From assembly GCA_049999805.1 (NCBI GenBank), contig JBNGIO010002948.1, forward strand, positions 1 to 47,482: DNA of 47,482 nucleotides, in the 5' to 3' direction. A program made the translations under genes and the position numbers. Position 1 is the first letter of the stretch. Each line of letters starts with the position of its first letter. Origin of the DNA: Folioceros fuciformis. Lineage: Eukaryota. The notes below the pieces were generated by a model. That model searched no databases, was not told the DNA's origin, and worked only from the letters and a program-made list of their open reading frames with translations. Shown here piece after piece: positions 10,891-38,740 of the stretch.

Positions 10891-11090
10891 CCTCGTCGTC
10901 CAGCGCGCTTTCTGCTCCTCAGAACGTTTTTTTTGAACCGGAGGTAGTCTCGAGACGTCTCAAACGCTGGGTTGGAGCACCCGGGTGCTCCAACAAATTC
11001 CCTGAAAATGACCCCCTTTTCCAACCAGCACTTTAGGAGCAGGCCGGTTTGCAGTTGCAGAGAGCTTATCCTTTAGCAGCGCCAGAAACA

Positions 11091-11951
11091 ATGGAGGGGC
11101 CGGGGCCTGGGCCGGGGTCGGGGCCGGGGCCTGGGCCGGGGTCGGGGCCGGGTTCGGGAACAGGATCAGGGCAGGCGCTGGGAAGTTGCGGCGGCGGCGG
11201 CAGTGTCGGCGCCAGCAACAGCACGAGCAATGGTGGTAGCGGCAAGAGCAAGGCGATGCGGCGGGAGCCATCGGTGGAGGATCTCTTCGCTCCCATGTGG
11301 CGCCTGGATGTGCACTCCACCAAGCCGGCATCCGAGGATGCGGATTCTAATCGAGAGCCGGAGCCGGAAAGTTGTGTTGCAACCTCGATTCCGATTCCCA
11401 GGGCCAGAGGCCGTAGCGGGAGCGGTGGGAGCAGCTCGGCCACTTCATCTCACTCTTGGCCTTCCTCCACCTCCTCCGGGATCGCAGATGTGAGGTCTGT
11501 AGGAGGCGCGGCACCCGCGTCCGGAGCTGGATCTGCACTCTGCGTAGGAGGACATGAGGGATTGGCGCCAGCTCAGACGGCTGCGCTCTCCAATTCCGCT
11601 TCCGACGATGATCAGGTGGCCGTGGACGAGAGGAAGCAGCGGCGGATGCTGTCGAACCGAGAGTCCGCGCGCCGGTCCCGGCTGCGGAAGCAACAGCACC
11701 TGGACGAGCTGCGGGCGCAGGTGGCGCATCTGCGAGGCGAGAACAATCAGATTATGAGCAAGTTCACTCTGGCCACGCAGCACTACGCGCAGATCAGCGA
11801 GGAGAATCGGGTGCTGCGCTCGCACGCCATGGACCTCAGCCGCCAGCTCCAGCGGCTGCATCACGCTGCGGTGGCGCACAACGCGGCGGCTGGATTCCTC
11901 AGTGTGGCAGGGAGTTCTACAGTAGAGACACCTGCCGCGACTACTCCCTAG
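11091..11951 (+). CDS. Intronless bZIP transcription factor (group S/C-like basic region) with Gly/Pro/Ser-rich N-terminus
   Basis: DERKQRRMLSNRESARRSRLRKQQHLDELRAQVAHLRGENNQI...EENRVLRSHAMDLSRQLQRL. First ATG at 11091. Confidence 0.9.
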   Translation: MEGPGPGPGSGPGPGPGSGPGSGTGSGQALGSCGGGGSVGASNSTSNGGSGKSKAMRREPSVEDLFAPMWRLDVHSTKPASEDADSNREPEPESCVATSIPIPRARGRSGSGGSSSATSSHSWPSSTSSGIADVRSVGGAAPASGAGSALCVGGHEGLAPAQTAALSNSASDDDQVAVDERKQRRMLSNRESARRSRLRKQQHLDELRAQVAHLRGENNQIMSKFTLATQHYAQISEENRVLRSHAMDLSRQLQRLHHAAVAHNAAAGFLSVAGSSTVETPAATTP

Positions 11952-17977: not shown

Positions 17978-18295
17978 TGGTGCAGTTTTATCTTCGCTTA
18001 TTCCATGTCTACAGCCAGATGCCTTGTCCGTTGCTGTGGGAGGGAATCTTTCATGCTCCTGTTCAACCTATTTTTTACGTGGTTCAAAGGTGAGAGATGC
18101 TTAACGCCCTGCTGCAGGCTGGCTCAAAGAGTGAAGGCGGGATGCCGATTGCCCAGCTGCTACTGCCTTGTGCAGGTTTATTAACATCAGCTACTCCATG
18201 TCTGCGAAATGCCTCCTCCGTATCTGTGCGGTGGTCACATGGGATCTTCCGCAGTCCTGTTTGATCTTCTCTTTCTTCACATGGTTCAAGGGTAA
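17978..18295. repeat. Degenerate ~120-bp direct duplication
   Basis: GTGCAG(G)TTT...TCCATGTCT...ATGCC...CCTGTT...TGGTTCAA(A/G)GGT occurs at ~17980-18092 and ~18170-18295. Confidence 0.55.
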
Positions 18296-18394
18296 GGTAA
18301 GGTGCTCCAGGCGGTTATGTTGTGGGTCGGCTCCCAGCGCGTACATATATATACAGAGGTGGATAAGACTGTCCGCCTTCCTACCGCATTGATG

Positions 18395-21300
18395 CTACTG
18401 GCTTAGGAAGTTCTGGGGTAGAGCAAAACTTACCCTGGCCTGGGTTCTACCCTGAAACCAAGTGCTACATTTAAGAGCAAAGATCTGCATTTGGAGGGCA
18501 GACCACACTGGTACATGCAGCTCAGGACATGAGAGAAAATACCTCCTGAAGCATGCTGCTACCTCCCTCAGGAATTGAGGCTTCAGTAGGTGTCCACATT
18601 CGATTCAGGGCCTACAGAGGGAACAAAAGAGCTAACTAACGTTAACAGGTTTGGATACTCTTATTCCTCTGACGCAGCGTGGCATAGCGAAAAACATGTC
18701 TTAGACCGACTCACCCGCACATAGTTGTCCTTGTCATACTCGTAAGATATGGTTGAGGTTTCCTCCTCACCAGCAACCTGCCCCAAGGTTGACCGCCTCC
18801 TTCTAGAGACAGGCGCAGCAGCTTGGGCTTCATCCCACTGGACGAGGCTCTCCAGTCTACAAGACCGGATAATTTGATCGAAATCACGACACACGTTGGA
18901 GTTGGTGTTTCACTATCATTACAGGAATCCAGATAGAGACAAAGGGAAAGCGAACGTACTTGCATGACACACGCTTCTGTAGCAAGTGTACAAGTTCAGG
19001 GCCAGAGAGGTCAGGTCCTTCAGCAGCATCTGCTACGTGCTGCGCATAGTTGAGGATGCGTTCAGGGTTGCTGAAGCTTGGTGCTCTCTCTGCATCAGGC
19101 TTCCATATCGGATTGTACGTCTGCACATGTGCACAAGGTACGTGACTTGAGTGGATTAGGTCCCGAATCCTTCAATCCACTCCCTGAACGCAAGAGGGAC
19201 AAACTACTCATTTACGAAGAAAGCACGAGAGTCTGCAGGGATTGATTGACACAAGGGCATATACGGAGAAGAGATACTGCGGAAGCAATCACCCGTATCT
19301 CCTTGAAGTCATCCTGTTCACCTTCGTTCTGCCCCAGTGCAAGCTTGAGCTTGCGGAAGTACCGCTGCTTGCCCCACACGAAAATACCGACACTCATGCC
19401 AAGAAAACCTAGAGATCCGATAAGCCCTCCGCATAGCCTGCGCACCGCTGTTCAACACAACACTTCACATCACGATCAACACTGCAGGCTTCGCAAACAA
19501 GAAGGGGGACGGGGCATGACAAACTTGGTGACGCCGTCGCAACATAGGGAACAACTTCCACAGATGCCTCGGCCGATAGAGGATAGGGTACATCACTATC
19601 ACACGCACCATAGCAGCCGAAGTTGCCCATGTCACTCACAGAAATATGCAGGACATAGGTAATTCCCGCTGTACCCTGTGCATCGAGTACCAAACGGTCA
19701 GCAAGCGTGCCAAACCAAGGCACCTAGCAAACTTGTGTGTCCAACAGCACGTTCCACAACAAATGCTCACATTGGGCTGAAACTGCATGGCAGCCAGGGC
19801 CGCATTGCAGACTGCCACCGGTGCCTTGAATATAAAGCCAGCACTTCCGAAGCTCACCACTTTGGACAGCTCTCGCTGCATATGATGGAACTTCGAAACA
19901 TCCGATTGCCGAGATTTAAGAGACTCGGCATTCTCTGCACCAATGGTGTAGTTGGTCCCCATTGGCAAGGATATCGTCAATACTCCACCTTCTATTCGCA
20001 AAGTAACCTCAAGTTGGAGCAGATGACCATCCGCTGCACGATCAGAACACGACACTCTTAGCCTAAAGGCACAAAACCATTCACAAATCTAGGCAGTCTA
20101 TACAAAACAAGTCGCAGCTGAAAGGGGAATCTTCTTGTACATTCAAAATCGCAAGAACCCTCATCCAGAAGTGGAATTCACCTCGAAAATCACTGCTGTC
20201 GGGATCTCCGACAACAATTGCCGGTACAACTAGGCCCTTATTAGTAGCGATCTTCACTTGATCTGGCGTATCAATGAAAGGTGGGTCATTGTAGGGGTCC
20301 AGCTGCGCAATACAACTCTGTGAATCCTCATGTCCTTTTCCATCCGACACAGTCACCACAACCGTATCATTCCCATTGAAATGCTGCTCCCTGCACTCAG
20401 ACCAGGGCAACAAATGACGACCTCAAACCGAGACTCAACTACACGTAGAATAGTGCAAGGAACGAAATTCCAGGACTGTAATGCAACAAGACCATCTTCC
20501 AAACAACTTTTCACTTTCATACGATCATCAGCGAATAAATGCTACCATCACAGACAATAGTTTGGATTCCTAGATATCCACATGGAGATGTCCCCTTTGG
20601 CAGACCAACACCGATGATCATGAATCGGAAAGGGGCGTCATTGAAGCCACACGCAGCCCTGAATGACCCTGGTTTGTGACGTCATACCCTTCATAGAGTA
20701 GCGCCGCAAGAGCTTGGTTCGCAAGACTGGTTGTGCCTGAAAAATGGACGTCTCCGGGGTGAGAGGGATCCGTAGGTAAGATTGTGAATCCGGTTATCCC
20801 CATATAGACGCGTGATGGAAGGATAAAGCTTCCATGTTTGGCGGAAACCTTTACAGTAACTGGTGTAGTTAGATTGAACGAGCTCACTTCAAAGACCAAG
20901 CTCCCACTGCAATCCTCTACCACATCCACACACATGTAATCAGCTCGCATCAGGCAACCAGTTCGGAGTACTCTGCCAAAGCACAATGGATACAGCAAGG
21001 GCACAGATCTGAGAGATGAGTCCAACCTCTGGCAAGGCATAACGGCTCCCTCCAGGCCTGTGATTAGACCTGGGGACGAAGACACATGCGGATAATCCAA
21101 AATCGACGACCCATTTACTGGGTGGTACATAGAGATACTCTCATCAGTACGCAGTCATCTTCATGCACTCGGAAAGCCGGATTCAAAAGAGTCAAGGGAC
21201 TTACTGTCACTAACGATCACTGCAAATGGGCTGCCAATAATCACTTGGTTATGGTAACTGAGTGAAATGTTGTAGTTCCCAGTGTGCACAGGCTTGTAGA

Positions 21301-24300
21301 ACATAATATACTTCCCCACACCCATGTGAACAAACGCTTGCTTATCTGCACTACCTGGTCCGCTTATATCAAAGCCTATGAGATTGGCGTCAGCAAGTGT
21401 GGGATTGCCAAATTCATCGCTGAGAAATACATCGATCTCGTCCCAGTATCTGATAGATGCTTTACGAGACAGACCTACTCCACTGGCGGACGACAAGGAG
21501 GCACTTGGTGTTCCTGCATTCACGTCACCACGAAAAGAGTTTAGCGCCCAACCAACAATCGGCCTGCGGCAGTCCGAGAAAACGTTTCAAGGTCCATGCC
21601 TGCAGAGATAATGAATACATACCTGCATTGACGGTGAAGAAAAATGGAGACCCAAAAATTTCCACCCCACCATTGCTGACATACAGGTGATACTGCCCAG
21701 CTTGCGTTAGGTTGTAGGTCAGAGAAAAGCGGGTGCCATTATCAAGAGATTCAATCTGACAACTTGCATTCACCAGTAAATGCACTCCAAGCCTGAACAC
21801 TTTTGGCACCAATATTGGAGCCGTTCCATTGGTTGCCACTTCGGGGGACAACATATTGTCGTACTGATCTCGTAGTGTGATGAGCAGGGTCAAGGAAACC
21901 CCAGCCAAAACGCTCTGAGATCCTCCTGCCCATGCACCTGTGCTTCTAGGCGTATCCAAATCACCTGCAATGGCACCACGTTGGCTCTCGGACTGACATA
22001 CACGCCCACACCACCACAAACTGGACATGCTGCTTGTACCCAAAGAATATTTGAAGATATTGTGACTCGCCTGAGAGGAATGTAAAGGCGATAGGCGCCA
22101 TAGAAGCGCCAGTTTTGTCCCCAATCCGTAGCTTAAACTTACCTGCTACAGTCAAAGTGAAGGACAGCACCTGCGCAGAGCTGTTCTGTGGCACAATATC
22201 TACTTTTGCCGAAAGCATCGTGCCATTTTGATCAATTTGGGGAGTGATGTCCTTAGCACCCACTGATACATAATTGCCATACATGTCTTGAGCCATAAGA
22301 ACAAAACTTGCTGTTTGCCCTACACGAAATGTGCTTATTCCGTTGAGCCATCCTCCAGTGCAGTTCGCTATGGAAAATTGCCCTGCACAACATTCAATTA
22401 GTAACAGCAAATGGGGTGGTCCAGTCATATCCAGCAAGCTGCATCTGAGAAACTTCTCAACCTGGAAAGTAGGAGTACTGGAAAGACCCCGGGATGCTCC
22501 CATCAGAGTTTCCCACTTGAAGCACGTACTGCCCAGCGTCATGCATTGTAAAACTGAACAGCAGCATTTCTTGAGATCCATTATTGAGAGGATTGAATTT
22601 GATGTTGAGAAGATTTCCACCCACGTCGGTCAAACCATTTTTGGCTACAGCAGTGAACACAGTACTGTTTGCAACTGCGTAGACAGGATTGTGGTTCTTG
22701 TCAACTTGCCTTACGACAAAATTTGCTGCCACTCCAACCGTAAAACTATTGATTCCACCCAACCATTCTCCGGCACAGAAGGGTGTTGACACCTTCCCTG
22801 AATGACAGAGACAACCGGTGAGCAATGTCGACACATGTACATGACCTTAATACGTAATTGTAACAGCAAAGCGAAAGACATAGCAGGTTGGACAGAAGAC
22901 TGTCAGTAGCACGCACTGATGGAACATTTTCTTGCCCACTGCAAATAGTCAGAATGTCAAGTGGGCTGCACGATGTCTAACCAAAATCTGACACAAGAAA
23001 TCTACCTGGCAATATCATTATGGAGAATGGACTGCCTGAAATAGCCTCTCCAGGTGCCACAGTCCCTAAGGACACACTCAGGCTATATGGGTCAGGCTGA
23101 GCCAATGCAATCGAGTACTTGACAGAGATGATGCTCTTCTTTCCCAGGTTCATAACGCTAAACGGTAGTAGCGAAACCTTCGGGGAAATGCTAAGGAAAG
23201 CGGTTGCCGAGTAGGAAACCACAGAATTGTTGAACACGTCCTGCAGCTGGATTTGAATGGTTAAGGAGTCTCCTGCATTCCCACCTTGCAATCCAGTTCC
23301 TGATGCCGTACAGCTAGGCGGATCCAGAGGTCCTACAATCAGAAGCAGAACTGATAAGAATATGCACAACTGTAACCAACATTTCTGCTCTGGAAAAGCG
23401 TTCTTCAGATACATGACCAGGCAGCAGTCAGCTCCATCGATCTGATACTATTAGCCCAAGCATGGCTATTATGAAGACGTGTTTACCGACCTTAGAGTAG
23501 GCAAGGCACCTGCATAGACGAGCTTTGTGTGACCCGAAGCAAGTAACGTATTATTCCATCCAACTGTGATGAAGTAGAGGCCAGCAATTGTAGCATTGTA
23601 GATCACAAAGTACGTGCCGTTTGTTTGAGTAGAATTCATCACGTATACGGGAATAGATGGGCCACTTTGTGTGAGAGATACAACAACTCGCAATGTGTCT
23701 GCTTCCATTGAGGTTGGATTTCCGGAGCTGTCTTTAAGCTCTACCTCAAATTGCGATAGCTGCCCAGCATAAGAGTTTCCCAGCCCTGTTCCTTCAATTA
23801 TACTCCCTTCAGTGGACTGAATAACTGCAGATATCACCTTACATTAGAGAAATCGTGCACGTACTGATTGTTCTCCTCTGAATACCTCAGATGCCTTTCC
23901 ATGCAATGTCTACGAGGTAATGAGTACAAGCAAGATCTACCCGCTGAACCAACAAAGAGGACGTCATGGTACCCTGTGAGGAACCCGTGAAGTGAAATGC
24001 TGAGCCCTTGATGTACTGATTCCCATCTCCAACTTGTAGGATATAGTCGCCAATCTGGGTGACTGTGAAGGTCATTGACAACTGGTTTGGGGTGCCAGCA
24101 CTCTGATTTGAACTTATCACAGGCCTGATTAGCAGATCGGGTATGTTAACAGGCTCGATATTCCCGGTATTGTACAGTGTTGCCAGAAAAGTCACTGTTC
24201 CCGATTCCAATGTTGGAACAGGATTACCAAAGGCATCAAAGAGAGAGATCACAAGGTTTGCGACAGAACCGAGATTCAGATGATTGATACCGTTGTACCA

Positions 24301-27193
24301 ACTTCCACGGCAATCAGGTACAGATAAGGGTCCTACAAATCAAAACCAAGTACGTTTTCTATAGATGAGGCTATCTACAAGTCAAAGCGCTGCACCCATG
24401 TCTGCTATGGCACAGATAAGCACAAACAAGCAACGTACCATGAAGAACAGTGAATTTCAAAGGACTGTTGGAGATGCTCTGCAAACCAGACGCGCTTGAC
24501 ACATTTAAAGAAAAGTTTCCAGCTATACTGGACTCAAAAGTGATGTCCTGAGACCCAGCTTGAACATCTGGGGACACAGTTACTGACTGATTATAACCTT
24601 GAACAGACACAAGGAAATTATAAACTTCAAAGCTGCCGGTCAGCACGTTAACAATGTTTCCAAATTCATCGCTCTGTATCACCCGGAGCGTGACTAGACT
24701 GCCAGCCACAAACTCCGAGCCATGTATCCAAATTCCTTGACAAGTACCTGGAAACACAGGACCTGCAAGAGCATAGCCTTGTATTACTCAGGATCCGAAA
24801 TTTGGAGGGTCTCTTCGATCAGCAGGTGCAAAAAGTGGATTCGAATGGCCAGTTCGGCAAGGTCATCAAGGCAGGACGTGATCAACAGAACTTGCCAAGA
24901 AACTGAGAACAGGTTCCCATTTGGCAGTTCTGAGGGATTGAAATCCTGATTCTCAAACTGTAGAGAAAAAAGCTTACCGGCACTGACATTGAAGATGAAA
25001 GGTGAGCCCATGATTCCAGTAACGCCATCTCCAACATGAAGCAAATAGGAACCAGGCGTGAAGGGCTTGAAACAAACAGCCACTTGGCTGGGAAAATTCT
25101 CATCAGAAGTCATTGTGAGATTGTACAGCTTCATGGCTGCCGGAAAATTTACCACCTCGACAGTAAACTGGAAAATTTGACTGTTAGAAAGCGCTGGTTG
25201 CAAGTTACCATAAGCATCCATTTGCGCAACTACAAGATAAGCTGTGTCCCCGGCCACGAACGTGTTCATAGAATTGTACCAAACTCCAGTACAATCTGGA
25301 ATTGAAAGAGGACCTGCAAAACCACCCCGATTGAGAACACACCTGAAGAGCAGAAGAAGTAAGGAGCTGTTTAACCGGGATAAGAAGCAGCGCTGCTCAC
25401 CAATGGTTGTCGAGAAGGGAAAAGGCGAGTTCTTAACAGTTTCGGTTGCAGTACCGACTTGAATATAATACTGCCCCACTGCCCATGTAGGAATGAAAGA
25501 CACGATAAACTTAGACTGGTCCGGATCCACACTTGTTGAATAGTTGAGGTTTCCAAGTTGGGTCATATTTGCATCCAAAAACATCACCCCTAGACTGAAG
25601 GAACTTGAGATCTTCACAACATTTTGAAAAGAATCGTACGCAGTAATCATGAGAGTTCCCTTATCAACTCCTGTTTGGAATACATCTTTCCCAGGCCATG
25701 TACCATTGCTCATTGACACGTTCACAGGACCTGGGGAAATGGCACAGAACCAAAACAAGTCAACCACACACAAGCACATTTTCCATATCCCGCAACCTCC
25801 ATCATAGACGAGATCAGCAAGAGACTAAAGATGTTGGGTCATGGTTATCTGCACAATTTCTCAAAATGCTAAGGTGCCTTGGATGGGGTTGTCCAAACCT
25901 GTAATCACCGTGAAGGGTGCTGGCACATTCGATAAACCTCGTCCCTTCAGAAATACGAAGAAATTATAGGATCCAGCAACTATTGGAGTGAAGGTGAGAT
26001 AGTAACAGCCGGCACAAAGTGGATTTCCTGACTGCTGGATTCCCCCTGGTGCAATGGAGACATTTTTGTAGGTCTGCTGGATGTAGCTGTCAAAGTTCAC
26101 AATTTCTGAGCTGCCTGTATTCTCCCAAACAATATTTCCAAAAGAATCAAACTGCTGCACGACAAGCCTTGCCTCCACTCCCGCTGTGAAAGTGTTGACG
26201 TACCCGGGCCAGGAGATAGTAGAGATGGAAGCGTCCACCAGACCTGTTACCCACCAAATTCCAAAGCCATGCCACCAGAGTAAAGCAACGCTTCTTCCTG
26301 CCTTTTCTTCTTTTTTTTTTTTTTTTTTTTTCTGTCCGTCTTTCTTTCTATCTTTCACCTTTCTCTTTAAAACTACGTTGAAAACAAGATTTCAAACAAA
26401 ACTCCACGAGTGATGAAAAACGAACCAGCCACAAATTCCACAACAGGACTGTTGACAGAGTTGTCCAAAAAGCTGCTCGGTTGCTCAGATTGATTTGGAG
26501 CGTCTTTGAGCACATAGAACTGATCGAAACCAAGATGAATATGGTAGGATGATGATGAGCCAGCCAAATTGTTCGCCGCAAAGCAAGTCACTGGATATAT
26601 TCCATAAGCGGTGATCTGGTAGTTGCCAACAGTGCAAAAAGCTTTCGGAACGATCTGTCTATTTTGATCCATAATGGTGACATTGAACACATAGTATGTC
26701 CCACTATAGAATCTACATTTCTCACAGTTCTCACAATACTGATCAGTTGTGTTGCAGAATAGTCTTCCACAATAGATATCGAAAGCCACAATAGAGAAAT
26801 TGGCAGGTACGCCTTCCACAATCCTGAGTGGATTGGGACAATCAAGACGTGTGCAATATCCTTCATCGATCCAGCTCGTACCATTCCACCATTCATCTTG
26901 TCTTGTAACTATAAAAATCAGAAGTCCATTACATGGATTCCAAGGGGAAATTTTTTTTGCAATGACTTAGAATAAAATCAGAATGTTTCAACAAACATCT
27001 ATAGTATTCTCCCAAAGTTGCACATAGTCAAGAAAGCTATAGAATAATCCTCACTCACACAACTCAATAATTGAGAGACAAATTGAAGGTATAAGTAAGT
27101 ACGATAAGGTGGAAATGCTTGTGCTCCCAAGGCAAATAAGATAAGATACACTGTCAATTGTTGTTGCCAAAACCACATTTGATTCACCCTCAT
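18395..27193 (-). CDS. GEX2: GEX2 (gamete expressed 2)-like type I membrane protein, copy A, ~12 filamin/Ig-like repeats
   Basis: Signal-peptide exon MRVNQMWFWQQQLTVYLILFALGAQAFPPY (27193). Then ~12 exons of form GP...C.G.W...F.AG...D.FGN...G.Y.L.V...I.GSPF...G. GEX2-type C-terminal region (HFNGNDTVVV, PYNDPPFI, VGDPDS, CNAALAAMQF, SVSDMGNFGCYGAC), TM segment GLIGSLGFLGMSVGIFVW, then a cytoplasmic tail. 3' end uncertain. Confidence 0.82.
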
Positions 27194-27913
27194 TTGATTT
27201 CAATGAAACAAGTAGTTCTTGCTTTTCTTGTGCTAATGATAGTTCCTAGTGATTGTTGTGATTTTCATTCAGCTTATGTTTGGTACATGATTTTGAACCC
27301 AAGAATACATCACACCATGCTTATTTTATGATCATGTTAGATGAAGAAGTTATGCAAGTAAGTATATCATTAATTAGTGGTGAAAAAAAAATTGAAGAGC
27401 GGATACAACAACACACATAGCACTTACAAGAAAAGGCCTGCGAGTGTAGTGTGTTAAGTGGAGGCTCGGAGCACATGTGGGATAACAGTAGAGAGAGAAA
27501 GTTTCTGGATTTATATAGCTATATATTCGTATAAAGTGTGGGAATTCAGAAAAGACAAATGTCCTTAGCGTTGGCAGGGTATCATCTCGGCCGATAAGTC
27601 ATTTTATGTAGTTTTATTAGTGTCCCGGCATGATAGAGCCTACTAGGTTGCGAGCTGCGCTGCAGAAAAAAGAAAAAACAATGAGAAATACTGTACATTG
27701 GTAGGAATCCAAGTGCGAGATCACGGGAACGGGACACGGCGGGTAAGGTCGTTCAAGTGACGTGGCGGAGGACGAAAATGGCGCCACGGCTCAGTCGAGG
27801 GCAGCGGCCTTCGGATTTGTTGCAGGTGGTGTGGTGGTGAGAGTTTCTGCGCAGTTTTGTGATGTTCCACAAGAATAAGAGCAGAATGGAAGGCGTTCCC
27901 TCTGACGGTGTGA

Positions 27914-27956
27914 TTGCAAGATTGCAAGATTGCAAGAGCCTTGCAAGATTGCAAGA
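27914..27956. repeat. (A)TTGCAAG short tandem repeat just upstream of the GEX2-B start
   Basis: ATTGCAAG x3, AGCC, TTGCAAG, ATTGCAAG. Confidence 0.7.
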
Positions 27957-27964
27957 CTCTTAAG

Positions 27965-30900
27965 ATGAGGCTGCAGAATGGGATTGCCAAGATGGCGGTG
28001 AGATTGCATGCTCACGGTACAGGAGGATCAGGGGCAGGAGCTGGTGCAGGTGCAGGGGCAGGGGTTTGGTTTCCTACCCTAACAGCACTTGGGTGTGGCC
28101 TTGGGCGCGTCCTCATTCCCCTGCTCTTGTGCTGCAATTTCCTGCAGCGGGCAACAGGCATCAAAGTGAGCGGTAAGGGTGGGGCTGAGCGGGGTGTGGC
28201 TGTCGGAGGCGACTAGAATTGAGTTGGAATCTGACAGTGAGCTGCGTTTGGTTTATGGTGTCCCGCACAGGACCTCCTGTGGCTACCGGCAGTTCAGCTG
28301 TATGGGACAGTGACTCTGTGCTCACTGCCGGGAGCCTTGCAAGTATGAACCTGTCGTTGGTGAACACCACTGGCCTTCCTGCAATACGGGATTCCTGGGT
28401 TGAAAACTTTGGAGGCTATCTCGGTTTCTCTTTCGTGGATGGAACTGGGACAAAAATTTCAGGTCCTGCTATACAGCTGGGGAACACAACAATACCAGGC
28501 TTGCAGTTCATAAGTTTTAATTGGACCACAGCGGGCTCCTTTGCTTTATGGATTAATGTATCTGGTGTACCAATTTCAGGATCACCCTTCTCGTTCTATA
28601 TAAACCCAGGTGATCAACTGTAGCATGTCTCTTCTACACCACACAACACACAGCGTCACCTCTAGCTCACCACCTTCTGGACCGCGCACCTGGTATGCCT
28701 CACGGACCTCCTGGCCATGGGCAGTCCATGCATGAATGATTTGTATCGCACCTGCTGTTCCAAGTTATGGTGTCACATCTGCACCAAGCCGGAACACCAC
28801 TCTAACAAATGTGTGGTGTGGATTCACAGGGCCACCTAATTATCCTGCTTCTGTTGGCTCCTGGGTAGATGGTGTTCATGATTTCTCCATTGATACTCAG
28901 GCTACTTTGACAATTACGCTGGTGGACGCGTACAACAACGACGTCTTCCTCTCACCAATGGAGGCTGGCCACAACTTAATTGTCTACTTCGTGAGAGGTG
29001 GAGACTTTACCTCCACAATCTTTACCACAACCATGAACAGGAACATTGAATCGGTGACTTTCAACACTCAAGTAGCTGGCAACCTCACACTGGCTATTGT
29101 CAGTAGAGATTTCGAGATTATCAAGAACTCGCCTTTTCATCTTTTCGTATCCGCAGGTACTATTTTGCCAATACTGCATTGCAATGGACCTATCTGTTGT
29201 AGGAAACACTAGCTTCTCACATGCATGCTTCTGCTGCTTTAAATGTGCACCGCAGCATTGTATCATGTCATCATGAGAGAGGCTTCTGTGATGCATAAGC
29301 CTGGAGTTCTGTCATCTGCATGTTGTATGCTTCCTCTCGGCTTTTTGCCATAATGAGAGAGGCTTCTGTGATGCATAAGCCTGGAGTTCTGGCATCTGCA
29401 TGTTGTATGCTTCCTCTCGGCTTTAAGCCATAATGAGAGAGGCTTCTGTGATGCATAAGCCTGGAGTTCTGGCATCTGCATGTTGTATGCTTCCTCTCGG
29501 CTTTGTGCCATAATGAGAGAGGCTTTTGTGATGCAGGCCCTGTTTCATTAGTGAAGTCACAAGGTGCTTGGTACCCAGATAATATTCCATCTGTGCAAGC
29601 AGGGAACCAGGCAAAATTTGTCGTCACTCAGATGGACAGATATGGTAACACTGTATGTCCTGTGAATGGAAACCAGCAGATGATCACTTTGACAGCCTTT
29701 TTCACAACTTACTCCTCTTCAGCAATACCGTCCATCTCAGCACAGGTTAATACGACTCTGGGCCAGACCACATTTACCTTCACTCCAACTGCAACAGGGA
29801 AGTCTCTCTTTACAGTCCAGGACTCTCATGGTTCAACTCTTGCTGGTCTGCCCCAAGTGTTCACCGTTACTCCAGGCAAGTCATCTTCTCGTGAAAGGAT
29901 TCCGTTGCTTTTGTTCCTAGTCCCTTTCTTGTTGTATCCCCGCAGAGGGAATGGTCTGCTCAACGGAAGTTCTGAAGCAACAGGGAGAGACGTACTGTTA
30001 CTGATGCTCTCTTTGGAGCCCTCTTGGGCTTGGAATGAACAGGTCCATTATCCACTCAACACTGCGTGGCAACCCTTGTTTACTCTGGAACGAGACTGGA
30101 TGGGGTCCCTCTCTTTCGTGCAGGGGTGCCGGCCACAGTAGTGATTCGCCTTCTAGATGCGTTCGGGAACATAGTGAGCTATCAAGATGGTGCAACAAAC
30201 ATCTTCCCCAACTTCGTTGCGACGTTGGTGAATGAACCTTTAGTCGCCATAGCTGGATTGACCTGGGCTCCAGTAGATAGTTCTGGGTCGCAAAAACTAA
30301 CCTTCATCCCAATTTCTGCCGGCGCAACAGTTCACCAGCTGCAGATAGGACAAGGCACGCAGGCTGTAGGAAATACGCCTCTGAGCTTTGCGATCTACCC
30401 TGGTAAAGCATCCCACAACCCTTTTTCTCGTCGCTGGAAATGCAAGCCTTCTTTGAGTCTAGTGTCAAGCAAATGCTGCCGATGGCTAGAATGTCCCCTG
30501 TTCAACAAACCACGATCTATGCAAAATTCGCTAAATGGTCTGTCTAACTCCCCATTTCTGTTGTCATCAGGGATCCTGTCTCCAGCGAACTGCACAGGCG
30601 GCTGGATGATGCCAGGCAGCCATTCTTTTGGAGTGGTTGGCACAGAAGTAAATCTCAGAGTGTACCTAATGGATTGCTGCGGCAACAACTTAACAGTAGG
30701 CAATGGTCTGGTAGCATATCCCTCCTTCTCTGTGAGCATGCAGGGCTGGGAATCCGTCGGAACAGTCTACAATGGTGGGATATATGGAAGCATTAAGACC
30801 ACTAATGGAAATGGTTATGTCGACGTGACCTTTAACCCAGTAATAGCTGGCAAGGGTAGCATCATTGTGTCTGCCATGTACTCTGGTGTCACGGCTCAGC

Positions 30901-33900
30901 TGCAAAATAGCCCTTTCAGCATCATATTGCCTGCTGGTGAGAGGCGTGATTTATCGGAGGCATCTGGCCTTATTCCATATCTGTGATCAGCTACTCACCC
31001 TTGTGGGTGCTGTTCTGACTTCCTCAGGGCCAGTGTATCCGATCAAATGCTTTTGCTTTTTCTCTCAAGGCGACACTTTTCATGCTGGCAGTACAGCTCT
31101 AATCGAAGTGGTTCAAGTGGATGTCTTCGGGAATGTTGTGGGGCCACAGAACTATCAGTCTGAGTCAGTGCGCTTCAATGGCACGGTGTACGAGAATGGT
31201 GTTCCTTTGCCTGCAGTGACCGTCAGTGTGGCAGGTCCAGTTCAGGGATCATATAATGGAACATGGACATTGACGAAAGCTTCTGATCAGTACAGCATTC
31301 GTCTAACGGCATTAGATCACACAACCACTGCTACGACCTATACCCCCGTCGTGGCCGCTGATTCCACCTTTACGGTTCTGCCAGGTAGCAGGATGACGTG
31401 TTGCTCTGCTGTGCACATCAAGCTGTCGAATCCTCTAACGACAGACTTGTCTGCTCTGCTCTTCCCTGGTGACAGCTGAAGTGAATGCAAGCCACTCAGT
31501 CGTGCGATATGGAACCAATTTTGGAGACCCCTTGCCTGTGATCTGTATGAGCAAGACAGTGTATGCCGGTGTCAATGACAAAATTCAGATTGAGCTTCGA
31601 GATGCCTACTCTAATATCATTGCGTCCCTCTCTCAGAACTGGAATACCTACCACTTCCTAAAATTCACCTTGAGCGTACTGAACGGTTCCATAGACATAA
31701 CACCTACTGTGCTCAGCCAAGTGACGAATGTACCCAACCCAGATGGATCTTCCCTTCAGGCAATCACATTTCTACCCTCTCTTGTGGGACAGTTTGACCT
31801 CCAGGTAGCAGGTGACAATGGGGAGACACCTATTTGTGGCAAAACGACCTTGTACGTCATGGCTGGCAAGTGAAAGCTAAACCTTCTCGATGGCTCATTG
31901 TAACTTGACTTTAGGTCCCTTGTGGTCAAAATGGAAGAGCTGCAAAGAACTCATGGATGAGAAGTTTGTGGGACTCTGGTTGTTGGATTGCAGGTTCTGT
32001 GTTCGTGCCTTACTGTGTGGGTAGCTGGCAATATGGGGTCAGTACAGCGCAAGCAGGATCTACAATCACTCTGCTTGTATTGCTTCGTGACGTGTATAAC
32101 AATTCCTTCCGGCAACAGTACACAAGTCCACAAGGACGTGCTTATCGCTTCAATGTCGTGCGAACTCTGGGATATCAGAATGTCATAAGGAATGTCCTTG
32201 AGACTGATCCAGATTCAAATGGATACAGCCCGCTATCCTTCACCCCCATACAAGCCGGCAACTTCCAGCTAGATGTTGGCAATCAAGATCAAGCGGGCCT
32301 CACAAGGATCGTCGGTTCCCCCTTCAATTTCACAGTCACCCCAGGTAGTTTGGCTTTCAGTTTCACAGTCAATGGTTACTGCTGGGAGGTAGAGTCTGGT
32401 TACCTCTGACAGCAAGGGGTCTGACACGCTGTCCATTTCTCTCTTGTGAACTGTGGTCTGAAATGTCTATGCAGGTGATGCGTCTGTGAGCGACTGTGTG
32501 GGAAGTTGGTCTGCGGGAGTGAACAGATATCAAGCTGGTGTTAATATTACCTTTCAAGTGCTGATGAAAGACAGGTTCAACAACATTGTCACTTCCCCGA
32601 ACAGTGCATCCAGCTTCCTCACCCTCACCATGACTGTTCTTGTTGCGGACGGTTCACGGGTCATTCCTTACTACAATTACACCTATGACAAGAGTCAGGG
32701 GACAGGCTACCAATATCTCCATTTTCAGATGCAGACTATGGGCCAGTTTCTTCTGCAGGTTGGGTCTGGGGACCAGGTGATATTTGGTTCACCGTTCCCC
32801 TTCACCATTACCGTCGGTATGACTTGTACCCAGCTTTGAATGATCTTCACACATGTAACAGCGCTTTGGTTGTTGATGGTCTGACCGTACGTGTAAGGAA
32901 AATTCTGACCGTTTTTCTGTCTTCAATGCGGCAGGCCAGCCCATGGTATCTCAGTGCGTAGGATTCTGGTTAAATCAAGTCAACGTATTCCAAGCAGGAT
33001 ACTCAACTGCAACATTAAATGTACAGCTCTCAGATGCATTTGGGAATCCTGTCACAGTTGCTAACGGAGGTAGTCCCTTGTTCATGTTCACCATCACCGT
33101 GGTTGGTGTTCAAAATACCGGAAGTGTGATAGCAAATGTGACTCAAATACCTGGGCAGCAGATTCGATTTGTTCCCATACAGGTCGGATCCTATCAGCTT
33201 AGCGTTGGGAGCAAATCTAACATCATTGGCTCCCCGTTCTCCTTCACAGTAGTTGCAGGTATGGGAATGATGTTTCTTTCACTTATACTGGTTGGCAGGA
33301 TGATCCTGTTGCCTGGATTCTCAACAATGTGCACTGAAAACCTGCAGGTTCTATATCGGTACGCTCTTGCATTGGACAATGGGTTGGCAATTACCATTTC
33401 ATCTCGGGCCAACTGGCAAACCTGAGTGTGTTGTTAAAGGATGCTGTTGGCAACACCCTTACATCAACCAGCCAGACTGGCTCCGTGTCTTTTAGTGTCA
33501 GGGTCGACGTGGGCAACACCACCAATGCCATATCAAATCTGCAAGTTTCTTCTGCTCAATTGGGCTACGTATACATCACTTTCGTGACCGTCTTAGCAGC
33601 TCAAAGTATGAAGTTGAGGGTGGGCAGCATGGTTGGTGGATCTTGGCAAGAGCAAATTTCAAATTCGCCCCTTTCATTCAGCGTCACTCCAGGTGTGTGT
33701 TGTAGCCTTGTTCTTCCATCTGCAAGATCTCCTGGGTCAGCCTTCGCGGGATTTTAGATTTGGATCTGTAAGCAACCAGTGCTGGTCTTTTGCAGGGCCA
33801 ATCCAATCCTCGGTTTGCACTGGGGCTTGGAGAAGTGGTATCAACCAGTACCAAAGACCGGCCGTCGCACAATTCTTTGTTACACAACGAGACGCTGCTG

Positions 33901-36900
33901 GCAACCCTGTCTATACAACAGCTGGTGGGGCCTTGCATTCTTTCCAAGCTACTTTGTCAGTCGTGAATTCTGGAGCCTCTATGGCCATGTCGAATGTCAC
34001 TTGGACATTATTTCCTGGGCAATCATCAACTTGCGTGCAAATTTTGAGCTTCACACCTAAACAGGATGGGTACTTCATGCTTAAAGTTTTTGATCAGTTG
34101 GGGACCATCCTCGGTGGACCTTTCTTCTTTTGGTATTTCACAGGTACTAGTAGTTCCGCATGTGCTAACATCTATGGTTGCCAAACCTTCCAAGCATGTG
34201 GCCCCTGAGTAGAATAATGTTACAGGACATGTTGAACCAACGAAGTGCACTATAGCTGGACCCGGATTATACAATTCAACTGCGGGGACTTCCTCTTCCT
34301 TTGTGATCCAGCTGAATGATGTCAATGGGAACCCGGCAGATGTGACGCCACAGCTGTCCACTTTGGGAGGAATCACAGCAGTTTTGCACATGCAGAACAC
34401 CACCTATGAGCTGGAAGTTAGGATAGCTAGAGATCCTCAAGCAGTTTCGCTGTTCGTGGCTTCTTATACTGCTATAACGGCTGGGACTTACGACATACTC
34501 GTGTACTACGCTGGACAGGTCCTCAAAAGTGGCCTTGTGAAGACTGTATATCCAGGTAAGGTAGTTTCTGACCTTAGCTCAGTAACGGAGGCGATACGAA
34601 TGTTCTGAAGTCGATCTCTTGGATGATGCAGGACCCTTGGACCCCCGAACGTGCTCTGCTCAGGGCCCAGCACTTCAAGGGCCACAGAAAGCAGGAACGG
34701 GTCTCACATTCCAAGTCTACACCTATGACTCGAGCAGTAACTTTGTCCCACATACCAGTGTTCAAGTTAGTGTGATTCCAGCAGATGGAGCCAGTGTGAC
34801 CAACATCACCCTTGATGCCAGTGGTGTGACAACAGTGAACTTGTCTATTACTAAAGCTCCGCGAACCTATCTCGTTTATGTGTTCGTGGCGTCAAATGTT
34901 GCTACTACTGAGACAGGTGGCAAACCACCTTTGATAGCTGATTCCAGCGACCCGACGAACGTAGCTGGTAGTCCATATCAGGTGGCAGTCCAGGCAGGTA
35001 CTCAAATGTGCAGCAATCCTTGCATTGGTTGAGGTCACGTTACTTGCACCTTTCTGCAGATCTACTCTTTTGTCCACAGGAAGTCCAGATCCTACTAAGT
35101 GCACCGCAAGTGGAAACGGACTGAATGCACATGATTCACTGAGGCAATGGAATCCTATCGTTGTGACAATTAAAGACAGCTACGGCAACCCTGCTTCTGG
35201 ATACTCTTCTTCCCTTTCGATAAGCATCACAGGTGTGGGTGACTATGAGACCTCTGATATTCAAGATCAAGGCAACGGGCAATACCTCATCCAGTTCAAG
35301 CCTGTGAACTTGGGAAGCTACCAAATCTCTATAACCTTGCAAGGGCAACCTTTGACGGGCAGCCCCTGGAACACGACAGTAGTTGGTACATCAACTCCGC
35401 CTCTCCGTTATTGAGCTTGTTCAGACACATGAGAAGATGTAAGCATGGCCAACTTCACTTTCACATAATCTTAGGTTTTCAGTTACCGACAGCAAAAAAT
35501 GACACGGCTTCTACTACGGATGGTAGCGCCGTGGCCATAAATGTCACCGGAAACGACCAGGTTTACTACGGAAGCGCGACTGTTTTCGACATCCCGTTGG
35601 TAAAATCCCTGCTTTTGTGGGTCTTGAAGGTTTTTGCTTGGCTACGTTTTCCACGCTAAAAAGATTTTGTTTTCCAGGCTCCTGGTAACGGTTTCGTCAC
35701 CATCACAAATAATCAGCTCCTCTACACACCCAATCACCAGTATATTGGGACTGATTTGCTGGGCTACACCATTCAAGACGGATACAATCGCACAGCCACA
35801 GCATATGTGGCGCTGACTATAGTCCTCAGGCCTCCACATATAGTGTCGATGCCGTCCATCATTGCTGGATTTGAGGATACACCTCTGCCAAGTTATGGGT
35901 GAGCTCAGTGCCTGCATGCTTGTGAATGGTTTCTGAAGTTCAAGCAGCTGTTTGGGTGTGGTTTATATACAACGAGCAGCATGCAAGGAATCAAGGCAAG
36001 AACATGCATGCTGTGTGGCATTGCGGTAACATTCATCTTGTGACAGTGGCATCACAGGAATGTCGATTGATTACAGTCGGCCGCAGGATGTGATCTACGT
36101 GAGCTTGACTGCCGGTCATGGAAGTGTGTATACAGCACAACCACGTGGCGGACAGATTAGCCTGCAGGGAACCGTCGCGTCATTGAACAGCAGCATACAG
36201 AATGTGCACTACGTGAGGTACATACAATGTTTTGCAGGCTAGGCTGTGGTGTGGCAAAGTGGAGAAACTTTTCTCACACTGGCTCCTTGCTTGGCAGCAA
36301 TAAGCACTTCAATGGAAACGATACTATCACACTGAGTGTGAAGGACTGGCGGGGCAATGGTGACACCAGGTTCCTGGTGGTCATTGTGCAGCCAGTGAAC
36401 GATCCTCCCTGGGTGCAGGTGCCCTCACCCTTGCAGATCCGCTCTTTGGCAGTGAATTTTGGGGGAGCAAACATGCCAGGCATTATTGTTGGTGACCCTG
36501 ATTCAGCAGATGTGAGGGGTAAGAGTCCAGAACTGATTGCCCTCTCGGTTCTGTCATACCACAAGCTGCTCTTGGCTAACTTTATGATGAGTGTGCAGAC
36601 GACCAGGCGGTGTTCTTGCTCGTGGTCGCGCTCGAGGTGGCTGGGGGCCTTCTCAAGCTGACGTTGCCCGTCCAATACAGACGGGATATTAGTCTGCTGA
36701 ACACGACGAGCAATGTTTGGGTGGACAGACCGGAGAGCCTCCTTGACGACGATTTTGTGAATGTGCAAGGGCTGGGAATCCAATTCGTGGCCCCCGTGGA
36801 TGTGTGCAACACGGCTCTTAGACAGCTGGTGTTTGCAAAAGACGACCTGAATGTAGGCCTCTTACAAGCATTGTCGAGACCCTTGAGCAGCAAGCAAGCT

Positions 36901-37832
36901 GGAGGGTCCCGGAGCTGCTGCTGATGAGTGTCGTGGTGGGCGGAGTGCAGATTTCCGTCAGGACAGTGAACCTGTTTGTGAGCGTGAATGACGGCGGAGA
37001 TTGGGGTGATTGCATCAACTGCACGAGTAACGCTTCTTTGCCTCTATCCATGAGCGTGATCGTGGAGATCGAGCTCCTGGACTGGTTAACAAAATTAGAG
37101 AACGCCTGGTCTGACACCCTTTGTAAGTGCCCCCAGCTAGTGACAAGAGGATTTTGTCTGTATCGTTTGCGTGAGCCTCAAAAGCAAGGTCGTTGGTGCA
37201 GTGGCAACGCGGAGAATATTAGGAAGCACCGCCGGATCGGTGGGCATCGCCTGTATTCTGTTGGTTTTCCTTGTGCTACATCTTTCACGGAAGGCGCGGA
37301 TGAAGTACAAGGCATTGGGATTTGTGGATGCAGATGAGCTCAATCAGGAGCTTCTATGCGAGCAATCAAGGGCGAGTGTAACAATCTTTTGTGTGCTCGA
37401 GGGGCAACAGAGGCATGCATGTTGTGCACACCCAGGTGCGTCGTTTCTCACGGGGGGCGGATCATGATGCAGATATTCAACCCGATGTGGATACCGGCGG
37501 CTGCGGGGGACCCTGAGTTTCGTGTCTCTTCCACCCCGAATCCTCTTCTTTTCCATGCGCGCAAGCATGAATTCAGACACAGGTACATAGCCTGACGTAG
37601 AGCCCCGCCTTTTGTGGCCAGCAAGGCAGATCGGCTTGCAATGAAGATGTAGATGAGCCATCCTGTGAGTTGCAGGTTGATGAAGGTGAACAACGAAGTG
37701 GAGAGGGAGATGCTTCTAGGATTCAAAGAACCGTCTGATTCATCAATTCGAAGAACAGCGAGGCCGTCTGTGTTCCAGGAGGAGATTTCAAGCCTGCCTG
37801 AGGATGAAGGCCCAGGAGCAGAGTGGTACTAG
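27965..37832 (+). CDS. GEX2: GEX2 (gamete expressed 2)-like type I membrane protein, copy B, ~15 filamin/Ig-like repeats
   Basis: Hydrophobic leader, then ~15 repeat exons (28271-35385). An Ig/cadherin-like module follows (LPTAKNDTAST...INVTGND...YTPNHQYIGTDLLGYTIQDG), then NKHFNGNDTI, PVNDPPWV, VGDPDS, CNTALRQLVF, SVNDGGDWGDCINC and TM segment AGSVGIACILLVFLVLHL. Stop TAG at 37830-37832. Confidence 0.85.
29273..29536. repeat. 80-bp intronic tandem repeat, ~3.3 copies
   Basis: Units starting ATGAGAGAGGCTT(C/T)TGTGATGCA at 29273, 29353, 29433 and 29513, nearly identical. Confidence 0.95.
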
Positions 37833-38740
37833 GCTACAGCTTCCAGGCTCCCGGCCCCGTGTCGTGAGACAATTGATGAGCTTCCAGGCTCCCGGCTCCG
37901 GTGGCCGGCCAGTAGTCGCAGGACAAGTAATTGGTTGAGAAGGCCAACGGAGAGTTTTTTCCATCTCCCTGGCATGAAGGACGGAGCAAGTGGTGTCAAG
38001 GAAATTAGGACATCTCTACATATCCGCAGCCATGCCTGCTGCAGACAATAGGATAATTGCAGGAACCTAGACTTTTTGCCACGCCAGATGACATTCTGGA
38101 TTCTTGCCACTTGCATCGTTATGCACGTGCCGTCCCTGTCCGCACACAATCCGTGTTACCTTGCCTGCACAAAGATTTCTGTCAAACGCGGCTTGCAATG
38201 CGGAAAAGGGAGGAGGCAGCGAGTACAGAAGAGGCGATGGCGCGTTATGGCGGAAGGGTGACGTCGCCCCATTGCGGAGTGTAGATAGCCGAAAAGAAGC
38301 ATGTGGAAACGTTCAGCTTTTGTCACAAGAATGCGTGACTGAAGCCTCGTGCGCTCAGACGTAGGTGCACAGATCCGTAGCATAGTCTATTGTAGTGCAG
38401 GGAGGCGTTGCTGACCACAGCCTCTGCAACCAAGCGGATCCTTTGTGGAGATGAGAGAGAAAGGGATATGGTCCGTTCCGTCCAGGCTCCAGCTGGGGCC
38501 GCTGGTGTGCGCGTCACCCTAGAGACCGAGTCATCACCGAGTCCAAGAGTCGCAGAGACTCGCAGACTCCCACTGCTGCGCTGCTCTGTGCTCTGCTCTC
38601 GTACTCTCCTGTGTGTCTGCAGCAAGCGCGCAGCCAGTGTGGATGCAGACTGTATGATTGTTATTTAGAGCTGGAAGCAGGGAACGCGGTCGTGGAAGCA
38701 ACGCAAGCTCCGATTGTGATTCCTCCGTCCTTTCCTCATT

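Follow-up and report, generated by a model that had tools for sequence, protein, structure and literature searches.

The 47,482-nucleotide (nt) stretch analysed here, referred to as the window, comprises positions 1-47,482 of the forward strand of contig JBNGIO010002948.1 (assembly GCA_049999805.1) from Folioceros fuciformis. It is eukaryotic in character, with numerous short introns, and contains a divergent pair of intron-rich genes. These are probably two genuine paralogues that diverged long ago within the GEX2/FUS1 family, a group of gamete-adhesion proteins, and that lie head to head; a role on gametes, a rod-like geometry and the status of the minus-strand gene (the minus gene) are inferred. 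Comparison of their C-terminal regions supports membership of both genes in the GEX2 family, and both are transcribed and spliced in their 3' parts. The pair is not a new kind of system, and long forms of this type are already present in public databases under the family name.

Gene layout and membership of the GEX2 family

The start codons were found at 27193 on the minus strand (CAT at 27191-27193) and at 27965 on the plus strand (ATG at 27965-27967), exactly where the first-pass annotation had placed two head-to-head starts about 770 bp apart. Gene models were built with a splice-aware dynamic program and then corrected by hand from transcript joints, two loose contig ends and the alignment of the paralogues. 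The plus-strand gene (the plus gene), whose frame is open over all 2349 codons of the spliced model, encodes a leader, 15 immunoglobulin-like (Ig) domains, a Big_9 domain, a membrane-proximal module, a transmembrane (TM) helix and a tail. The order in the minus-gene protein is a leader, a cysteine-rich (Cys-rich) region, 11 Ig domains, a membrane-proximal module, a TM helix and a tail.

27965-37832, plus strand: coding sequence of the plus gene, 25 exons, 2349 amino acids (aa), own splice model
28240-35384, plus strand: array of 15 Ig-like domains, one per exon, phase-1 introns throughout
35493-35898, plus strand: Big_9/Cadherin_5-type domain, two exons
36047-37122, plus strand: membrane-proximal module, about 340 aa, motifs HFNGNDT, VNDPP, VGDPDS and NDGGDWGDC
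37202-37371, plus strand: TM-helix exon, donor of a GC..AG intron
37473-37832, plus strand: cytoplasmic tail exons with intron 37583-37675, opening with R-IFNPMWIP, tail about 114 aa
27194-27964, no strand: spacer of 771 bp between the two start codons
18522-27193, minus strand: coding sequence of the minus gene, 21 coding exons, 1904 aa with the 91-nt exon skipped, own splice model
26426-26965, minus strand: Cys-rich N-terminal exon, 179 codons
21206-26241, minus strand: array of 11 Ig-like domains, one per exon, phase-1 introns throughout
21027-21117, minus strand: 91-nt exon, present in a transcript contig
19525-20916, minus strand: membrane-proximal module, motifs HFNGNDT, YNDPP, VGDPDS and SDMGNFGC
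19293-19447, minus strand: TM-helix exon, both junctions seen in transcripts
18522-19120, minus strand: cytoplasmic tail exons, opening with R-TYNPIWKP, tail about 152 aa

The succession of leader, repeats, membrane-proximal region, single TM helix and tail that had been proposed earlier is borne out by the spliced models, Pfam matches and Kyte-Doolittle (KD) hydropathy peaks. The stop of the plus gene is confirmed at 37830-37832, and transcript splice junctions move the end of the minus gene from the previously proposed 18395 to 18522. TM helices were called as the KD 19-mer at the aligned position: the most hydrophobic 19-mers of the two proteins (residues 2214-2232, KD 2.32, for the plus gene; residues 1728-1746, KD 1.83, for the minus gene) both fall where relatives have their TM helix. 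Leaders were called from hydrophobicity; hydrophobic leaders are found in both proteins, in first exons that are predicted only, and N-x-S/T sequons number 34 and 35.

Searches with the C-terminal module by BLASTP returned 3 of 151 stored proteins, from Diphasiastrum (KAJ7541186.1, 1051 aa; E 5e-68), Selaginella (EFJ04876.1, 1365 aa; E 4e-62) and Ceratopteris (KAH7281701.1, 2408 aa; E 8e-37). A profile of the modules of these three relatives reached 239 proteins at E <= 0.001. Among the 120 matches listed, the GEX2 family domain PF23616 (Ig_GEX2_N) was present in two, the Selaginella query itself and a 1104-aa protein of Dionaea muscipula (Dimus_029374, P0164; E 8e-86, 89% coverage), and the others were mostly bacterial tandem-95/Big_9 proteins aligned to the Big_9 part. 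The Dionaea protein carries PF23616, PF00630 (Filamin) and PF17963 (Big_9), matches the plus module at E 3.7e-35 and, by tblastn, also finds exons of the C-module in the two genes. In the atlas it lies closest to three clusters of streptophyte proteins, all with the name 'GEX2 N-terminal Ig-like domain-containing protein' (983, 1135 and 1149 aa), in which 98-100% of the members have Big_9, 97-98% Filamin and 90-96% Ig_GEX2_N. Moreover, in a six-sequence alignment the motifs are shared by all six proteins from the start of the module through the TM helix. According to PMC9777546, Big_9 and the TM helix are the typical conserved domains of the GEX2 subfamily. Taken together, the module alignments, the Dionaea protein, the atlas clusters and this description lead us to accept the membrane-proximal regions as GEX2-type, in line with the earlier claim for both genes, since the modules align with lycophyte, fern and angiosperm GEX2-type proteins.

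In the Big_9 part, the plus exon 35678-35896 scored 31.7 bits with PF17963 (cut-off 23.6) and 27.8 bits with PF17892 (cut-off 26.5). No Big_9 match above the Pfam cut-off was found at the corresponding place of the minus gene, a feature that the first-pass annotation had missed; its HFNGNDT exon (20183-20389) gave a partial match of 22.5 bits, under the cut-off of 23.6. At E <= 1, Pfam returned nothing beyond chance-level rows for five of the six plus-gene and two of the three minus-gene C-terminal exons scanned, and an AlphaFold2 (AF2) model of the Selaginella C-module from a three-row alignment had a predicted local distance difference test score (pLDDT) of 43.1, too poor to read. The first tail exon of both genes (18962-19120 on the minus strand, 37473-37580 on the plus strand) opens with the motif R-x-[YF]-N-P-x-W-x-P, which is also present in the Ceratopteris protein (P0018) and in the Selaginella and Diphasiastrum proteins (between them P0089 and P0090) and absent from the Dionaea protein. 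Speculatively, this motif may link to a cytoplasmic partner that has been lost in seed plants.

Transcript evidence and the status of the minus gene

Transcripts were taken from one public run (X1), of unlabelled library type and tissue, which contains 0.29 of the sampled words of the window. Its contigs, which cannot rank genes by expression and drop rare isoforms, were aligned to positions 18200-38100, where 33 of 35 pieces were at least 99% alike to the window. Of the 15 joints displayed, 14 have GT..AG ends and the fifteenth (37370|37472) is a GC..AG joint one base on; a further 17 joints were not displayed. The contigs skip short stretches bounded by splice ends, which identifies them as products of spliced RNA; in that sample, both genes are thus transcribed and spliced over their 3' parts. 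Thus, neither copy is untranscribed, an outcome that the first-pass annotation had named as damaging to its proposal. Joints seen in the plus gene are 35598|35677, 35897|36046, 36215|36296, 36517|36598, 37370|37472 and 37579|37673, together with a loose end at 29876; the minus gene has nine joints across 18610-21205 and a loose end at 23973. Both loose ends coincide with the starts of the next exons. For plus exons 1-3 and the acceptor at 37202 there is prediction only, in the latter case from phase and the paralogue.

Four of the 44 modelled introns, in both genes, are of the GC..AG type, each with a donor AG|GC(A/G)AGT. Two were seen in transcripts (29876-30042 and 37372-37472) and two are predicted by the models (31866-31993 and 21965-22070). 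In most plants, about 1% of all introns are of the GC-AG type, and the share at this locus looks high.

A possible interruption of the minus gene had not been noticed before. One transcript contig (record 1, 2146 nt) spans it from 21988 to about 18542, with summed exon lengths equal to the length of the contig, and includes an exon of 91 nt. Read in the frame carried over from upstream, this exon gives PGLITGLEGAVMPCQ, a segment that lines up with the conserved beginning of the module in relatives. When it is left out, the frame is open over 1904 codons in 21 exons, and about 450 codons past the break retain the conserved motifs, the TM helix and the tail motif. Such open and conserved sequence favours either a functional gene that works through an isoform without this exon or damage of very recent date, so the minus gene would either depend on skipping of the 91-nt exon or have been disabled recently. 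The earlier concern about one inactive copy thus applies in a milder form: the minus copy is transcribed, and it may not make the full protein, given the frame break in the contig.

The two paralogues are only distantly alike. Their C-modules share 27.9% identity, compared with 33.1% between the plus gene and Diphasiastrum. The Ig domains of the minus gene are ordered as five N-type, one 13-type, one 14-type, three N-type and one 15-type, which parallels the Selaginella protein P0157, and its Cys-rich head matches residues 111-198 of the Selaginella proteins P0157 and P0015 by tblastn (E 4e-7). The Ig order and the weak likeness of the Cys-rich head to Selaginella copies that lack Big_9 argue that the duplication was not purely local. 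The Selaginella copy with Big_9 is recorded on a contig that differs in length from those of the other copies; by this criterion they appear to lie on separate contigs, so the head-to-head layout would not be shared there; the alternative raised earlier, that a paired arrangement is standard in relatives, was not seen in that species.

Several observations weigh against two working, anciently diverged paralogues. After the 91-nt exon, the reading of the following exon is off by one base, and a premature stop comes at codon 1478, ahead of the TM helix; the 91-nt exon is part of the only transcript contig seen for this stretch of the minus gene, and reading of the surrounding sequence found no canonical alternative splice site that mends the frame. 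A six-row tree of the C-modules joins the plus and minus genes (85/89, not starred), with the longest branch for the minus gene (2.45 vs 1.40), and this pairing of long branches fits a lineage-specific duplication over two ancient classes. By BLASTP with composition adjustment, the Cys-rich head resembles P0157 only at E 0.01 over 17 aa. The two genes are linked to Arabidopsis GEX2 indirectly, by way of the name of the Pfam family, the atlas clusters and the Dionaea protein. Expression evidence comes from the single run described above. Within it, no contig covers the bins 25504-27495 and 28160-28823, so the 5' exons of both genes, including the start codons and leaders (25504-27193 in the minus gene), are predicted. 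The only cover near 28023-28062 consists of loose-ended contigs over a (CAGGGG)n microsatellite (28024-28064), which lies inside plus exon 1 and encodes the Gly-Ala run of the leader; contigs touching this repeat have loose ends of 167-255 letters and hence come from other loci with the same repeat. Finally, a transcript contig over 33882-34552 (record 3) is unspliced through the predicted plus-gene intron 34144-34225, which must be removed for the frame to stay open because it contains a stop at 34206-34208; the contig looks like a retained intron or pre-mRNA.

Some of these points bear on the strongest alternative, that only the plus gene is a working GEX2 and that the minus gene is a young pseudogene, or yields a transcript targeted by nonsense-mediated decay, while still being transcribed. 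The stop at codon 1478 in the contig, the lack of a canonical alternative donor or acceptor that would restore the frame, the long branch and the loss of Big_9 all favour it. On the other hand, the 1904 codons that are open once the exon is omitted and the motifs, TM helix and tail retained past the break argue against long decay, and a skipping isoform could exist unseen, as rare isoforms are dropped from contigs. Overall, this alternative deserves to be taken seriously but is the less probable one, and the reading of two anciently diverged paralogues is still preferred.

Repeat arrays and long forms outside seed plants

The nature of the repeats was examined with Pfam on stop-to-stop open reading frames (ORFs), using a cut-off of 27 bits for PF23616. 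On the plus strand, PF23616 was above the cut-off in six of ten ORFs, another reached 26.1 bits against 27, one matched Filamin (58.3 bits) and two had no family. On the minus strand, PF23616 was above the cut-off in five of ten ORFs and four had no family. Scores for PF23616 rose to 110 bits, and domains of both PF23616 and PF00630 occur in both genes. An Ig profile was additionally built from the 26 Ig exons of the two genes; it recognized 15 domains on the plus strand (28273-35384) and 11 on the minus strand (21209-26238), and no further Ig domain in the window (the other 13 rows had E >= 1.5). Since these 26 exons match the profile by construction, Pfam is the independent witness. The 15 repeats claimed earlier for the plus gene therefore stand; the figure of about 12 for the minus gene becomes 11, or twelve if the Cys-rich exon is counted, for which Pfam found no family and AF2 gave a model of the exon alone with a pLDDT of 32.5, too poor to read a fold.

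No repeat exceeds 41% identity to the reference repeat; the arrays are therefore old and not composed of recent tandem copies. In domain-by-domain scores, plus Ig domains 12, 13 and 15 best match domains 13, 14 and 15 of Ceratopteris, 6, 7 and 8 of Selaginella and 3, 4 and 5 of Dionaea, and for plus domains 2-11 the best match is always Dionaea Ig 2. This pattern points to membrane-near domains conserved by position and to one distal type that has been multiplied. The same scores revealed no one-to-one order between the distal repeats of the plus gene and those of Ceratopteris, so the two arrays may have grown separately; the long array may be ancestral or may have grown in parallel.

Previously, the two proteins had been described as much longer than angiosperm GEX2. 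This is correct relative to the seed-plant form of roughly 1000-1150 aa, but the length is not special to this genome, because long forms are found in Ceratopteris and Selaginella; similar repeat counts in relatives, which the first-pass annotation had regarded as evidence against its proposal, are thus a fact. The long layout of the plus gene recurs in Ceratopteris richardii KAH7281701.1 (P0018, 2408 aa), with 15-16 Ig domains (12 PF23616 and 3 Filamin stretches), Big_9, the C-module, a TM helix and a YNPHWIP tail; its UniRef name is 'GEX2 N-terminal Ig-like domain-containing protein', and it shares only 24% identity with the plus gene in the C-module. In the literature, no paper was found on long GEX2 forms, on paired GEX2 genes or on fern or hornwort GEX2 beyond mentions, and supplementary tables may list such proteins.

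The minus gene resembles GEX2-like copies of Selaginella moellendorffii that lack Big_9, namely EFJ32173.1 (P0157, 1810 aa, 14-15 Ig domains), XP_024527230.1 (P0015, 1445 aa), P0001 and P0002. These copies, with a best-ORF identity of 29%, share with it a Cys-rich N-terminal region, many GEX2_N Ig domains, additional Ig domains after the 13- and 14-type domains and the lack of Big_9. Unlike the minus gene, however, their models end inside the Ig array without a C-module or TM helix, and may be incomplete. A word-index search with P0002 returned only P0002 and P0001. In PMC9777546, Big_9 is reported to be absent from two Selaginella GEX2 genes.

Angiosperm GEX2 (Arabidopsis At5g49150, compared through the Dionaea protein) has in common with the window genes the leader, GEX2_N and filamin-type Ig domains, the module and one TM helix, and with the plus gene also Big_9. 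The Dionaea module contains the corresponding motifs NG(N/D)DT, VNDPPF, GDPD and NDMGNFGC, and its last three Ig domains correspond by position. The differences lie in the number of Ig domains (5 by the Ig profile, compared with 15 and 11), in the C-module identity of 22.7-24.8%, and in the delivery of angiosperm sperm by the pollen tube. For AtGEX2 and FUS1, seven Ig-like domains are given in 10.1101/2021.09.03.458930 and PMC12069490, and eight for AtGEX2 in PMC13589550. Chlamydomonas FUS1 (PDB 9qs0), treated as a GEX2 orthologue in PMC13601591, is a single-pass gamete adhesion protein with an Ig-like rod (7 Ig-like domains in 823 aa according to PMC8777248) that acts on the plus gamete, which lacks HAP2.

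Beyond plants, the Ig type is widespread. A HMMER search with the Ig profile reached 7370 proteins at E <= 0.001, and its top ranks were occupied by giant repeat proteins ahead of any plant protein, with bacterial proteins also among the best matches. Examples from deep-branching protists are a 4208-aa protein of Gefionella okellyi (P0005) with 36 matched stretches and a 2906-aa protein of Diphylleia rotans (P0017) with 23. Among 42 PDB sequences, the profile matched filamin A (E 1.2e-14), gelation factor 1wlh (E 6.6e-10) and Chlamydomonas FUS1p 9qs0_A (E 6.3e-10). Filamins belong to the same Ig fold family but show no likeness past the repeat, and are cytoplasmic actin cross-linkers without a leader or TM helix. 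A filamin identity for the two genes was rejected, as no calponin-homology domain was present in any scanned ORF or exon, and the leader, TM helix and sequons point outside the cell.

The wide occurrence of this Ig type, the matches of the Big_9 part to bacterial tandem-95 adhesins and the unlabelled tissue of the transcripts would all suit vegetative cell-surface adhesion or wall-contact proteins with no role on gametes. This seems improbable, since the whole C-module including the TM helix was found only in plant proteins of GEX2 layout (the 3 of 151 stored and 2 of 120 listed proteins mentioned above), and the family members described in PMC6290024 and PMC13589550 are gamete proteins; the former places expression of the Marchantia orthologue of GEX2 in sperm undergoing differentiation.

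Possible roles, the spacer and neighbouring genes

If the two genes are indeed GEX2-family paralogues, both proteins would be type I single-pass proteins whose ectodomain forms a chain of beta-sandwich modules. The CxGxW 'GEX2_N' Ig type would form the multiplied distal array, three to four membrane-near Ig domains would be fixed across land plants, and one or more Big_9/cadherin-like modules, a TM helix and the tail with its R-x-[YF]-N-P-x-W-x-P opening would follow. The plus gene appears to have the canonical GEX2 layout in a long form as in a fern, and by homology its product is most likely a surface protein of the male gamete that establishes the initial contact with the female gamete. Filamin repeats measure about 4 nm per Ig domain; at this length, the plus ectodomain might reach about twice as far as that of a GEX2 with 7-8 domains. 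The minus gene would represent a faster-evolving second class with a Cys-rich head, no Big_9 and additional Ig domains before the last one, resembling the Selaginella copies without Big_9. Reach and recognition probably reside in the multiplied distal repeats. The conserved membrane-near part may hold partners in cis, in the way that GEX2 holds GEX3 in Arabidopsis, a binding that depends on the Ig domains according to PMC13589550.

Plants have few conserved proteins on the gamete surface, of which GEX2 is one. The locus described here, taken with the proteins from fern and lycophytes, indicates that the family has forms twice as long outside seed plants. The comparison also separates a fixed part, the likely conserved machine (membrane-near Ig domains and Big_9/C-module), from a variable part that may serve reach or recognition, and draws attention to another class, without Big_9, that has received little notice and seems to be missing from seed plants.

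Another possibility is that the genes form a matched pair: the 771-bp spacer would regulate both together, or one would serve the sperm and the other the egg, with products that bind each other or assemble as heteromers. The layout with 771 bp between the start codons, the presence of both genes, spliced, in the same run, and the fact that the proteins differ most distally and share the membrane-near module are consistent with such a pairing. However, no transcript ends are known from the spacer. It also contains none of the six window matches to the DUO1-type motif AACCGYC (7.45 expected across the window, so the six are within chance). Moreover, the two Selaginella classes appear to lie on different contigs, and the known GEX2/FUS1 partners described in PMC13601591 and PMC13589550 are the unrelated proteins MAR1 and GEX3. 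A matched pair is considered quite unlikely. The spacer is a candidate bidirectional promoter. Its plus-gene side contains an 8-bp tandem repeat, GATTGCAA (27912-27956, plus strand; 5.2 copies, 85% matches), which stops 8 bp short of the plus start codon and could be part of a 5' untranslated region or a promoter element.

A more specific proposal, to which we give very little credence, is that free-sporing plants have two ancient GEX2 classes that stand here head to head as a complementary pair, with the canonical long GEX2 on sperm and the class with a Cys-rich head and without Big_9 on the egg or acting as a co-receptor in cis, and with the 91-nt exon switching between anchored and secreted forms. 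If this were true, plants with swimming sperm would have, in a GEX2 paralogue, the partner long sought on the opposite gamete; in PMC13589550 and PMC13601591, the female-gamete partner of GEX2 is described as unknown.

Outside the gene pair, three further ORFs of the window gave Pfam matches:

about 9330-10220, minus strand: condensin II CAP-H2 mid domain, 26.3 bits, just below the cut-off
11037-11951, plus strand: bZIP_1, 46.6 bits
16184-16936, minus strand: cytochrome P450, 23.3 bits

The region is dense in genes, and these three appear to be ordinary neighbours unrelated to the pair.

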